Shown here piece after piece: positions 5,347 to 9,200 of a stretch of DNA of 53,638 nucleotides. Below the pieces are notes generated by a model, which was not told the DNA's origin, did not search any database, and saw only the letters and a program-made list of their open reading frames with translations. Numbering within the stretch: position 1 is the stretch's first letter; each line of letters starts with the position of its first letter. The stretch is from Eubacteriales bacterium (GTDB lineage Bacteria > Bacillota > Clostridia > Oscillospirales > QAKW01), in assembly GCA_045603925.1 (NCBI GenBank), contig JAZUNB010000086.1, positions 1 to 53,638 on the forward strand, written 5' to 3'. Both the position numbers and the translations under genes were made by a program.

Positions 5347-5378
5347 ATTTTCATCCCCCGTTCAAAGGAGTGAGAATT

Positions 5379-6350
5379 TTGATCGATTATGACCGCCTTC
5401 CGCAAACTTTAAAGGATTTTATTTTCTATTTAGAGGTTGTTTTGGGAAAATCCAAGTCAACTACCTATGAATATATTCTCGATCTTGAGAACTTTTTCCG
5501 TTATACCCGAATCAAAAAAGAAAAGCTCCCATCCGATACGAAGCTGCATGATGTTGCGATCCATGATCTTGATATTCCCTTTGTGGCATCCATTACCTTG
5601 CAGGATATCTACGATTATTTTTATTACTGCCGTGAGGTTCGTAAAAACGGTTCCCGCAGTATTTCCAGAAAAATGTCTTCCCTTCGTACTTATTTTAAGT
5701 ATATGACCCAGAAGATGCACCTTTTGAAGAATAACCCCATGGAGGGCGTTTCCACCCCTTCCCTGCCTAAAACCCTTCCCAAGCATCTGACTCTGGAGGA
5801 AAGCACAGAATTGCTGTCTGCTGTCAAAAAAAGTCGCAGAGATTATGCAATCCTTACGCTGTTTTTAAACTGCGGAATGCGCCTTGCAGAACTGGTTTCT
5901 CTGAATGTGAGCGATATTAAGAATGAGTACGCGGTGATCACCGGCAAAGGCAATAAACAGCGTACCATTCATTTAAATCAAGCCTGCCGCGATGCGGTAG
6001 ACGATTATCTGAACCACGAACGCCCCAAGGAAGGCTTGAAAGACCCGGAGGCACTGTTTATCAGCCGAAATAAGAGCCGTATTTCCCGTCGCGCGGTGCA
6101 GAATCTGGTTGAAAAATACCTGCATATTGCCGGTTTGGGCGACAAACACCTATCAACCCATAAGCTGCGGCATACAGCGGCAACCTTAATGCATCGCCAT
6201 GGCCATGTGGACATCCGCGTGCTTCAGGAAATTTTAGGCCATGAAAACCTCGGGACCACCCAGATTTATACCCATGTAGACAGCGAATCCATCAAAGAAG
6301 CATCCATCAGCAATCCCCTTTCTAAAATGAAACGAAAAAATATAGAATAA
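5379..6350 (+). CDS. Tyrosine site-specific recombinase, XerC/XerD family
   Basis: Catalytic pattern: GMRLAEL (R), HKLRHTAAT (HxxR), LGHENLGTTQIYTHV (H...Y). The GTG at 5370 overlaps the AAGGAG Shine-Dalgarno, so the TTG at 5379 is the more likely start. Confidence 0.8.
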   Translation: MIDYDRLPQTLKDFIFYLEVVLGKSKSTTYEYILDLENFFRYTRIKKEKLPSDTKLHDVAIHDLDIPFVASITLQDIYDYFYYCREVRKNGSRSISRKMSSLRTYFKYMTQKMHLLKNNPMEGVSTPSLPKTLPKHLTLEESTELLSAVKKSRRDYAILTLFLNCGMRLAELVSLNVSDIKNEYAVITGKGNKQRTIHLNQACRDAVDDYLNHERPKEGLKDPEALFISRNKSRISRRAVQNLVEKYLHIAGLGDKHLSTHKLRHTAATLMHRHGHVDIRVLQEILGHENLGTTQIYTHVDSESIKEASISNPLSKMKRKNIE

Positions 6351-8130: not shown

Positions 8131-8159
8131 ATTATAGCATAAAAGCGGTGGAGTGGCAA
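8131..8159 (-). promoter_or_regulatory. Sigma-A promoter with extended -10 for the membrane-protein gene
   Basis: The minus strand reads TTGCCA (8154-8159), a 17 nt spacer, then TGCTATAAT (-10 at 8131-8136). Confidence 0.65.
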
Positions 8160-8165
8160 GTTATT

Positions 8166-8338
8166 AGTGATATTCTGTGCTTCGCACAGAGTGATATTTT
8201 CACTTCGTGAAAGTGATATTAAAACCTACGGTTTTAGTGATATTATATTCGCCTTTTAACTGCCCGAAGGGCAATATCACTCGGCGTTAGCCGAATATCA
8301 CTGCGAAGCAATATCACTCGCCGAAGGCGAATATAACT
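8166..8338. repeat. Mosaic array: 4 direct AGTGATATT followed by 4 inverted AATATCACT, every gap a different mini-hairpin
   Basis: AGTGATATT at 8166, 8190, 8212 and 8236. AATATCACT at 8273, 8294 and 8310, and AATATAACT at 8330. Gap hairpins: ctgtgc-ttc-gcacag, ttcac-ttc-gtgaa, aaaacc-tac-ggtttt, tgccc-gaa-gggca, cggc-gtta-gccg, gc-gaa-gc, cgcc-gaa-ggcg. Confidence 0.9.
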
Positions 8339-8340
8339 AA

Positions 8341-8373
8341 AAAACTCTTGTTCTTTCGAACAAGAGTTTTTTT
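8341..8373 (-). terminator. Intrinsic terminator of the lipoprotein gene
   Basis: aaaactcttgttc-tttc-gaacaagagtttt, flanked by A and T runs on both sides. Confidence 0.8.
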
Positions 8374-8433
8374 GGGAGTTTTGAACTTAATGACACGAAT
8401 AAAAAGCGCCTGAAAACCGAGGATTTTCTTTAT

Positions 8434-8994: not shown

Positions 8995-9009
8995 CACCGC
9001 CTTGGATTT

Positions 9010-9018
9010 ATTATAGCA
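9010..9018 (-). promoter_or_regulatory. Extended -10 element for the lipoprotein gene
   Basis: The minus strand reads TGCTATAAT, 15 nt upstream of the ATG at 8994. The -35 is poor. Confidence 0.45.
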
Positions 9019-9033
9019 TAAAAACGGTAATTT

Positions 9034-9196
9034 GTATGTAATCCGCAACTTGTTGCGGAATGTAATCCACCGTAGGTGGTATGTAATCAATCCGAAGGAA
9101 GAAACATACAAAGCTCACGCTTTGATAACATACAGTTCGCAAGGCGAACTGACTACATACGCCTATCGGCGATTACATACCAATCCTTCGGATTGG
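9034..9196. repeat. Mosaic array: GTATGTAATC-type direct units followed by GATTACATAC-type inverted units with unique mini-hairpins
   Basis: ATGTAATC at 9036, 9060 and 9081. ACATAC at 9104, 9128, 9155 and 9175, with the full GATTACATAC at 9171-9180. Hairpins: cgcaac-tt-gttgcg, cacc-gtag-gtgg, tcc-gaa-gga, aagc-tcac-gctt, agttcgc-aag-gcgaact, gcc-tatc-ggc, ccaatcc-ttc-ggattgg. Confidence 0.85.
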
Positions 9197-9200
9197 ATAA

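Follow-up and report, generated by a model that had tools for sequence, protein, structure and literature searches.

The 53,638-nt contig JAZUNB010000086.1 (Eubacteriales bacterium, Oscillospirales; assembly GCA_045603925.1), analysed over its whole length and called the window below, carries at positions 8166–8338 a dense array of 9-nt words and small hairpins that fills the space between a terminator hairpin (8339–8372) and the promoter of the next minus-strand gene (8159–8131), both found by consensus scan. What kind of element is this array, and does it act as RNA or as DNA? A first-pass annotation, made by a model from the letters alone, had described it as a mosaic of direct and inverted words, able to fold into a rod, whose design it did not recognize in the REP/BIME, BOX, ERIC, CRISPR, integron attC or iteron families. 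Its account of the words holds: AGTGATATT occurs exactly at 8166, 8190, 8212 and 8236 on the plus strand (spacing 24/22/24) and, on the minus strand, exactly at 8273, 8294 and 8310, the fourth inverted word at 8330 being the variant AGTTATATT. The end words of the array are inverted with respect to each other (AGTTATATT / AATATCACT). Seven of the nine exact copies of AGTGATATT in the window fall within these 173 nt, and with up to one mismatch the word has 29 matches in the window, compared with 14.0 ± 3.6 in shuffles (0 of 100 shuffles reach 29).

Between the words lie seven differing GC-rich self-complementary gaps, which read on the plus strand CTGTGC-TTC-GCACAG, TTCAC-TTC-GTGAA, AAAACC-TAC-GGTTTT, GCCC-GAA-GGGC, CGGC-GTTA-GCCG, GC-GAA-GC and CGCC-GAA-GGCG. 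All seven are real, as is the regularity of their loops (TTC versus GAA), though the loops identify no strand. The claim that every gap is a single hairpin does not extend to the central one, 8245–8272, which is composite: it holds one strand of a long-range helix, named P0 below (8243–8255), a linker and the hairpin GCCCGAAGGGC (8262–8272). When folded, the array is far more stable than its dinucleotide shuffles on both strands (z = −7.6 and −7.5; 0 of 200 shuffles as stable).

The array almost certainly belongs to Gut-1 RNA (RF01706), a known family of RNA without assigned function. An Rfam scan of the whole window returned Gut-1 at 8269–8339 on the minus strand with 62.5 bits (E = 4e-10), the gathering score being 50 bits, and a relaxed-threshold scan gave the mirror half, 8165–8248 on the plus strand, 48.6 bits, just under the cut-off. 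Because the right half on the minus strand and the left half on the plus strand both match the model, the array can be described as two Gut-1-like cores facing each other. Gut-1 hairpins are joined by linkers of GUGAAAU type; those of the window read GUGAUAU, and their AU and GU ends pair across the hairpins. A match above the curated cut-off is the very outcome that the first-pass annotation had named as fatal to its claim of an unrecognized design, and that claim is therefore abandoned; the label mosaic goes with it, the array being read here as one two-part Gut-1 element. We agree with the annotation that it is not a REP/BIME, BOX, ERIC, CRISPR, attC or iteron element.

Gut-1 was described from 43 human-gut metagenome sequences with no known organism and was rated a certain RNA ("Y") that is not cis-regulatory (Weinberg et al, 2010, Genome Biol 11:R31; PMC2864571); both this study and Rfam treat it as a likely non-coding RNA gene. 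The Rfam entry has since 2010 consisted of a one-line description that gives the human gut, no organism and no function, and its model covers 77 nt and three hairpins only. Our literature search on Gut-1 and RF01706 found no account beyond that of 2010. The window shares with the Rfam description the hairpin–linker–hairpin core, the GUGAWAU linkers, which close the stems with their AU and GU ends, the fourth hairpin UGCC..GGCA-GUU and the gut habitat; absent from that description are the hairpin on the 5′ side, the long-range helix P0 and the tail, whose linkers are complementary. The inverted second half is present in two of the five flanked seed rows examined in supplement 95 of PMC2864571 (BAAZ01000095 and BAAZ01025322), and these rows carry it without comment. 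What is new with respect to the published description is the assignment of hosts, a position rule (directly after genes, tRNAs or tmRNA, and co-oriented with them), the two-part architecture, in which P0 competes with the first hairpin and the tail carries complementary linkers, and a sister family with other words.

We scanned one genome per species with the pattern GTGAWAT, gap, GTGAWATTGCC, gap, GGCAGTT, drawn from the part conserved in all seeds examined. The scan returned at least 119 relative loci, almost all in metagenome-assembled genomes (MAGs) of gut Clostridia, and the same pattern had no match in viral contigs. An earlier and looser pattern (GTGAWAT three times, with gaps) had matched unrelated repeats in viral contigs, and its loci, L001–L120, were discarded. 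All 18 loci that were re-scanned with Rfam match Gut-1, with 52–88 bits. Among the matches listed, to which the statements on hosts, sources, layout, copy number, neighbours and orientation refer throughout, the hosts are Acutalibacteraceae, Oscillospiraceae, Ruminococcus, Ruminiclostridium and Christensenellaceae, and the sources are humans, goats, sheep, cattle and deer. Gut-1, which in 2010 was found only in unassigned human-gut reads, is now found in MAGs of named families from humans and ruminants. Assemblies mostly hold one to four loci, and there is one Gut-1 in the 53.6-kb window.

The grammar of words and hairpins, which the first-pass annotation had suggested looking for in related genomes, recurs in many of them: 72 of 124 copies (window included, among the matches listed) can be read as one grammar along what we call the top strand, in the window its minus strand. 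With R standing for the word AGUGAUAUU and S for the word AAUAUCACU, its 5′ part runs from hairpin T through R0 (AGUUAUAUU) and h1, R1 and h2, R2 and h3, R3 and h4 to AGUU, and its 3′ part comprises a short linker, the centre (GGCGAAUAUA), S1 and h5, S2 and h6, S3 and h7, and S4. The corresponding parts in the window are as follows.

8339–8372, minus strand: T, a 15-bp hairpin with an A-run and a T-run, AAAAAACTCTTGTTC-GAAA-GAACAAGAGTTTTTT (consensus scan)
8319–8338, minus strand: R0 (AGUUAUAUU, 8330–8338) and h1, CGCC-UUC-GGCG (8319–8329)
8294–8318, minus strand: R1 (8310–8318), h2, GC-UUC-GC (8303–8309), and R2 (8294–8302); Rfam match
8273–8293, minus strand: h3, CGGC-UAAC-GCCG (8282–8293), and R3 (8273–8281); Rfam match
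8258–8272, minus strand: h4, GCCC-UUC-GGGC (8262–8272), then AGUU (8258–8261)
8243–8255, minus strand: centre, AAGGCGAAUAUAA, the 3′ strand of P0, pairing with 8324–8336 over 13 perfect bp and a G.U
8199–8244, minus strand: 5′ part of the tail, with S1 (8236–8244), h5 (8221–8235), S2 (8212–8220) and h6 (8199–8211)
8166–8198, minus strand: 3′ part of the tail, with S3 (8190–8198), h7 (8175–8189) and S4 (8166–8174)
8131–8159, minus strand: sigma-70-type promoter of the next gene, TTGCCA (8159–8154), 17 nt, TG-n-TATAAT (8136–8131) (consensus scan)

T looks like a bidirectional intrinsic terminator and goes with the element, being found in several other genomes just before Gut-1 copies that follow different tRNAs. 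Positions 8324–8336, made of R0 and the 5′ arm of h1, double as the 5′ strand of P0, while 8273–8318 form the core of the Rfam match. The signature UGCC..GGCA-GUU is kept in every Gut-1 type. The tail linkers AAUAUCACU are complementary to the R word, the tail stems are longer (5–7 bp in the window), and the promoter begins 6 nt after S4. Between copies, the number of tail hairpins varies from one to five, and that of S units likewise from 1 to 5. A second type, mostly from high-GC MAGs, has the word GUGAAAU and consists of four R units with h4, another hairpin and a true terminator; its S half is absent. A generic hairpin-array detector found these GUGAAAU-type copies and a second element of the window (9034–9198, described below) but missed the array at 8166–8338, because two of its stems have only 2–3 bp without their flanks.

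At L156 (12–120), six nearly identical "tgcctgacggca GTGATAT" units stand in tandem, and L235 (1214–1302) is likewise a tandem expansion. Since some copies are tandem expansions of one unit, arrays can grow by unit duplication.

The pairing of the local hairpins is maintained while their sequences change. The stems of h3, h5, h6 and h7 are 92–97% paired, compared with 56–67% once the 3′ arms have been reassigned at random among the copies (values as high as those observed arise in 0 of 500 shuffles; for h3, 96.8% compared with 64%), and each of these hairpins occurs in 40–51 distinct sequences. Hairpins h1, h2 and h4 are invariant within the window's subtype and covary between subtypes. The linker probably reads AGUGAUAUU each time because its half-words UAUU and AGUG can extend the bases of the hairpins, lengthening the adjoining stems with U-A, U.G, A-U and U.G pairs. 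The long-range helix P0, in which R0 and the 5′ arm of h1 pair with the centre (8324–8336 with 8243–8255 in the window), is 97.9% paired across 71 distinct copies, whereas slid controls reach 34–48%. At one of its positions the pair is U-A in 37 sequences, A-U in 30 and C-G in 2. Six further covarying versions of P0 occur in divergent copies, such as UAAAUCCGUCU/AGACGGAUUUU, UAAAUAAAUCC/GGAUUUAUUUA, CUAAAUCCACCC/GGGUGGAUUUA, AUAUAAAUCCC/GGGAUUUAUAU and others. Both the hairpin stems and P0 thus covary at the level of sequence. P0 and h1 share a 5′ strand and compete for it; in the copies with a divergent P0 the near partner, the 3′ arm of h1, is complementary too. Two conserved partners thus compete for the 5′ segment, each excluding the other.

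How does this compare with the rod that had been proposed from the window alone, in which direct words pair with inverted words to form 9-bp helices broken by four-way junctions, each bearing two mini-hairpins? Part of that proposal stands. The minimum free energy fold is rod-like (−82.0 kcal/mol, z about −7.5 on both strands, compared with −80.0 kcal/mol with P0 enforced and −69.0 kcal/mol for local hairpins alone). The words are exact complements in three families, GUGAUAU/AUAUCAC, GUGAAAU/AUUUCAC (in L149 and L173) and UAUGUAAU/AUUACAUA (in the window at 9034–9198, in L296 and in L304), and R2 and R3 show about 95% complementarity to whichever S word they are compared with. The outermost pairing, however, does not hold: R0:S4 reaches only 82% pairing, R0 being adapted to the centre, with which it pairs and covaries in 71 relatives. 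The complementarity of R2 and R3 to S comes without covariation, the S variants AAUAACACU, AAUACCACU and AAUAUAACU being uncompensated in R2 or R3. The rod also has to accommodate the variable number of S units, the absence of the S half from GUGAAAU-type copies and a copy at L149 that keeps only P0 and the S tail, and RNAalifold, run on the hand-structured alignment, chose word-to-word registers that shift. Moreover, the R units lie inside the domain closed by P0 and the S units beyond it, so that intramolecular R:S pairing needs P0 to be open. The rod could be the sole fold, the second state of a bistable RNA or a pairing between molecules. We consider it fairly unlikely, and retain it as something that might form in a second state or between molecules rather than as the fold.

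The genomic position of the copies bears on strand and on form. Among the matches listed, the upstream neighbour shares the element's strand in 75 loci and lies opposite in 17, and the downstream neighbour shares it in 53 and lies opposite in 38. A tRNA or tmRNA gene, of many different identities and always in the same orientation, stands immediately before about 21 copies. Copies of GUGAAAU type run from the stop codon of an ordinary gene to a true terminator, which places them in 3′ untranslated regions (UTRs). No promoter of the element's own was seen in its sequence. This context favours the top strand, i.e. the window's minus strand. Stem lengths and flanking pairs hint at the same strand: the first-half stems are short (means 4.0, 2.0, 4.3 and 3.3 bp), and they depend on flank pairs, G.U among them, that can form on the minus strand only, while the tail stems are longer (means 5.6, 4.9 and 5.3 bp) and not extendable on the minus strand. 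We infer from this context that the minus strand is the active one and that the active form is RNA rather than single-stranded DNA; RNA on the minus strand is the reading that we prefer, and with the P0 fold it is moderately probable.

Several observations weigh against it. The variable stems are nearly pure Watson–Crick, with 17 G.U and 10 A.C in ~2100 pairs; the near-absence of G.U therefore leaves no clear strand signature, and selection on both strands or on DNA would fit too. The local fold energies of the two strands are nearly equal (−69.0 and −67.1 kcal/mol). In the window's subtype, with a strong terminator before the array and a promoter after it, only read-through polymerase would transcribe it. 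The P0 fold by itself does not account for the complementarity that R and S words keep in three word families. Finally, all R words are identical inside one element, a hint that they share a binding partner or evolve in concert.

Identical words with a spacing of 22–24 bp, about two helical turns, would also suit a protein that binds duplex DNA, as on iterons or operators, and controls the adjacent promoter: the last word lies 6 nt from the −35 box, and at many of the loci where a gene for a four-helix-bundle protein follows, the −35 box overlaps the last word. Such a protein would not, however, require spacers that covary as hairpins, nor a covarying long-range helix. The GUGAAAU-type copies lie in 3′ UTRs before terminators with no promoter nearby, the neighbouring element of the same window uses another word, and the survey of neighbours revealed no linked regulator or rep gene. 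Together these make a duplex-binding array very unlikely.

The four-helix-bundle genes just mentioned (PF05635; 23S rRNA intervening sequence (IVS) protein, TIGR02436) lie directly after the element, on the same strand, at about 17 of the at least 119 loci (~14%): L239, L220, L224, L172, L159, L155, L170, L225, L133, L124, L203, L171, L228, L229 and L168, with L180 and L165 as partial cases. The −35 box overlaps the last inverted word at many of them. Since the upstream genes differ and the downstream gene sets are of several kinds, Gut-1 and the PF05635 gene seem to travel together as a pair. PF05635 is the family of Avd, a protein of diversity-generating retroelements, and our literature search on the four-helix-bundle/IVS protein found only this link. 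The window has no PF05635 gene.

The recurrence of this gene in changing contexts could be taken to mean that the array works in trans, as a small RNA, sponge or scaffold that is cut from the 3′ trailer and whose linkers bind a protein or another RNA. The classification of Gut-1 as a likely non-coding RNA gene by Rfam and by Weinberg et al (2010; PMC2864571) agrees with such a product, as does the identity of the linkers within one element, a feature of multi-site sponges. Yet the element shows no promoter of its own, terminators precede many copies, and no partner gene is conserved in most loci. The two elements of the window moreover have differing words, so that one protein cannot read both. 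A trans-acting product is, in our view, quite unlikely.

The position and orientation bias, the lack of a promoter of its own and the arrangements terminator–array–promoter or terminator–array–terminator led us to propose instead a structured RNA that acts in cis at the 3′ ends of genes and in the spacers between them, a model built on the family membership, layout, covariation and host range described above and about whose correctness we are evenly divided. The element would be transcribed as the trailer of the upstream gene, in the window by read-through of T after the lipoprotein gene that precedes it. T (8372–8339) would fold first, co-transcriptionally, followed by the four short hairpins, their bases extended by the UAUU and AGUG half-words. 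P0, of 13–14 bp (8336–8324 with 8255–8243), would then displace the first small hairpin and close the first half as a multi-branched domain, behind which the three longer hairpins would trail, joined by exposed AAUAUCACU linkers. Such a compact block between the end of one transcription unit and the next promoter could cap or insulate read-through RNA, and the complementary R and S words would permit a second, rod-like conformation. A function as insulator or 3′-end element is put forward tentatively and remains on the doubtful side, the capping or insulating activity itself being conjectured from layout and position.

The surroundings of the array in the window lead to a further question, namely whether the element moves. 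On the minus strand, the order is Hsp33, three tRNAs (9512–9237), a terminator (9234–9199), the second array (9198–9034), a promoter, the lipoprotein gene (to 8434), T, the Gut-1 array, a promoter, the gene for a 195-aa membrane protein (8024–7437), an M24 peptidase gene and a convergent tyrosine recombinase gene. Neither the lipoprotein nor the 195-aa membrane protein has a family match. Three features of this region are needed below.

9034–9198, minus strand: second element of the same layout with the other words UAUGUAAU/AUUACAUA, following the third tRNA and the bidirectional terminator 9234–9199
9015–9010, minus strand: TATAAT of the extended −10 promoter TGCTATAAT of the lipoprotein gene
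5370–6350, plus strand: tyrosine recombinase gene of XerC/phage-integrase type (PF00589 and PF02899), 2 kb from the array and convergent with the M24 peptidase gene

The second element begins with the hairpin ATCCAATCC-GAA-GGATTGG, continues with four UAUGUAAU-type linkers with distinct hairpins and ends with three AUUACAUA(C) linkers, also with distinct hairpins, before the extended −10 promoter. It has no Rfam match at the gathering score. Its relatives are clear at L296 and L304 and more distant at L249, the word scan of metagenomes otherwise giving mostly noise. Two elements with different words thus stand ~700 nt apart.

The recombinase gene, the variable region downstream of the tRNA cluster and the location of copies at gene 3′ ends in fixed orientation raise the possibility of a structured single-stranded DNA recombination site of attC type, or of a segment invertible between the 13-bp repeats 8243–8255 and 8324–8336. 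Structure kept while sequence varies would suit such a site, and GAA triloops closed by C-G recall very stable DNA mini-hairpins. The inner segment is, however, flipped in none of the 124 copies, which come from different assemblies and are among the matches listed. The recombinase is kept in the orthologous loci L240–L242, which are without Gut-1, and a tblastn search with the window's recombinase as query detected none of its homologues near the other 119 loci. Many copies follow housekeeping genes. Integron attC sites do resemble the array in that structure is kept more than sequence, in their fixed orientation just downstream of open reading frames (ORFs) and in their inverted short cores; they differ in being one imperfect hairpin with RYYYAAC/GTTRRRY cores, extrahelical bases, IntI and cassette arrays, none of which is found in the array, whose words do not fit these cores. 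A recombination site is the most improbable of the explanations weighed here.

More can be said for a portable or selfish intergenic module, in which terminator, array and promoter are gained, lost and duplicated together at gene 3′ ends and beside tRNA genes. The structure would then promote the spread or upkeep of the module itself and not benefit the host, although such a module could coexist with a role at the RNA level. Three loci orthologous to that of the 195-aa gene (69–77% identity; L240–L242) have no Gut-1 upstream of it, and in L240 the same tRNA precedes a shortened form of the second array and then two small ORFs of another kind, so that the occupancy of the slot behind the tRNA cluster varies. 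A module of promoter, short leader and ribosome-binding site (RBS; CTTGC..CTCC..CTTTTATGCTATAAT..AAGGCGGTGAT) follows arrays and precedes unrelated small ORFs, mostly of proteins with hydrophobic N-termini; it stands at 8131–8165 and 9001–9033 in the window and in L125, L148, L161, L192, L193 and L217. Terminator and promoter/RBS remain with the array even though the tRNAs beside it and the ORFs after it are unrelated, so that terminator, array and promoter behave as one unit. Flanking proteins fall into 180 clusters among ~190 (loci among the matches listed), and the variable unit number, with the six identical units of L156, points the same way.

A duplication is found at L173 (5050–6100, minus strand), where two tandem units of ~420 nt lie downstream of tRNA-Thr and tRNA-Tyr. 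Each comprises an inverted T-arm-like piece (GGTGGATTCGAACCAC), a structured stretch of ~100–130 nt, a repeat of the tRNA-Tyr 3′ end (GAATCCACCCGCTCCCACCA) and a two-part Gut-1 with its terminator hairpin, the words being GUGAAAU/AUUUCAC in one unit and GUGAUAU/AUAUCAC in the other. By its sequence this looks like a repeated att-type duplication of the tRNA 3′ end; duplications also occur in L130 and L149. The intervening pieces of such units were not recognized by ARAGORN or Rfam. The copies are nonetheless old and diverged with compensatory changes, as expected from long purifying selection on structure, and their number is low (one in the 53-kb window, mostly one to four loci per assembly). 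No target-site duplication was noticed, though no systematic search for one was made. No integrase homologue lies at the other loci, and the downstream proteins of tRNA-linked copies look like ordinary chromosomal genes when read by eye, without a family scan or a transposase search. A portable module as the main explanation is, all in all, unlikely.

BOX elements of Streptococcus pneumoniae (boxA-boxB(n)-boxC) are modular and intergenic, with variable internal units and pairing end modules, and are transcribed with their neighbours. The array is likewise modular and intergenic, with a variable number of units and end modules able to pair, but there is no sequence similarity, BOX units measure 45–60 nt compared with word-plus-hairpin units of 22–24 nt in Gut-1, and the copies per genome number about a hundred, near-identical, for BOX and from one to a few, diverged, for Gut-1. 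Correia elements (CREE) of Neisseria are short intergenic inverted repeats with promoter or terminator activity, whose transcribed hairpin is a substrate of RNase III. They are high-copy miniature inverted-repeat transposable elements (MITEs) with 26-bp terminal repeats and TA duplication and, unlike Gut-1, have no internal array of covarying mini-hairpins. Low copy number and divergence set Gut-1 apart from MITEs in general (BOX, Correia, ERIC), and no end duplication was noticed, a dedicated comparison not having been made; the presence/absence polymorphism at orthologous loci is a MITE-like trait that does exist.

REP/BIME elements and REPINs of proteobacteria are palindromic units at gene 3′ ends, often in inverted pairs and transcribed as 3′ UTRs, and REP/BIME elements can block exonucleases or act as terminators. 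REP consists of one conserved palindrome with a GTAG head in hundreds of copies, with a RAYT transposase, whereas the array has differing stems, conserved linkers and low copy number; no RAYT was seen, though no search aimed at it was made. CRISPR and type III antitoxin RNA repeats are identical direct repeats of at least 23–36 nt with a cas or toxN-type gene adjacent. Here the repeats are 9 nt in two orientations, and the neighbours are the lipoprotein and membrane protein genes.

Gut-1 may also be one member of a wider class of 3′-end RNA devices in gut Clostridia, defined by layout rather than by word. Members would consist of a terminator hairpin, a segment X with a near or a far partner, an array of word-joined hairpins and an array of complementary words, the word itself being interchangeable (three are seen: GUGAUAU, GUGAAAU and UAUGUAAU). 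As P0 bars word-to-word pairing in the same fold of one molecule, such a device would either switch between two states or zip, as an RNA, onto another copy of itself and so build assemblies; in some lineages it would move about as a portable terminator–array–promoter cassette marking variable small-gene slots downstream of tRNA genes. This generalization is speculative and more probably wrong than right by a wide measure. If its two-state or self-pairing part is true, Gut-1 represents a new kind of bacterial 3′-end RNA device; should the element prove to be a structured spacer and nothing more, a known motif has gained a better annotation. An orphan motif becomes a testable object, with a strand to probe, a helix to mutate and constructs to compare.

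Some minor observations accompany these results. Resemblance of the word to Shine–Dalgarno and anti-Shine–Dalgarno sequences (GGUGAU / AUCAC) or to a start–stop pair (AUGUAA) is regarded as numerology, since it fails across the three word families. The consensus scan gave weak intrinsic-terminator-like sites at 8171–8193 (plus strand) and 8315–8333 (minus strand), each being one word–hairpin–word unit in the half where the word reads AGTGATATT. At L181 (1397–1492), a THF riboswitch (RF01831, 89 bits) lies in a Gut-1 locus and is unrelated to the array. Tandem or tRNA-end arrangements related to that of L173 were noted at L158, L160, L130 and L149. Finally, the ~60 nt between the lipoprotein stop codon and T (8373–8433, minus strand; GAAAATCCTCGGTTTTC ... 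TTCGTGTCATTAAGTTCAAAACTCCCA) are conserved in L122, L148, L181 and L211; the upstream genes of the loci sharing them are unrelated, and their end resembles a degenerate tRNA T-arm and 3′ end.

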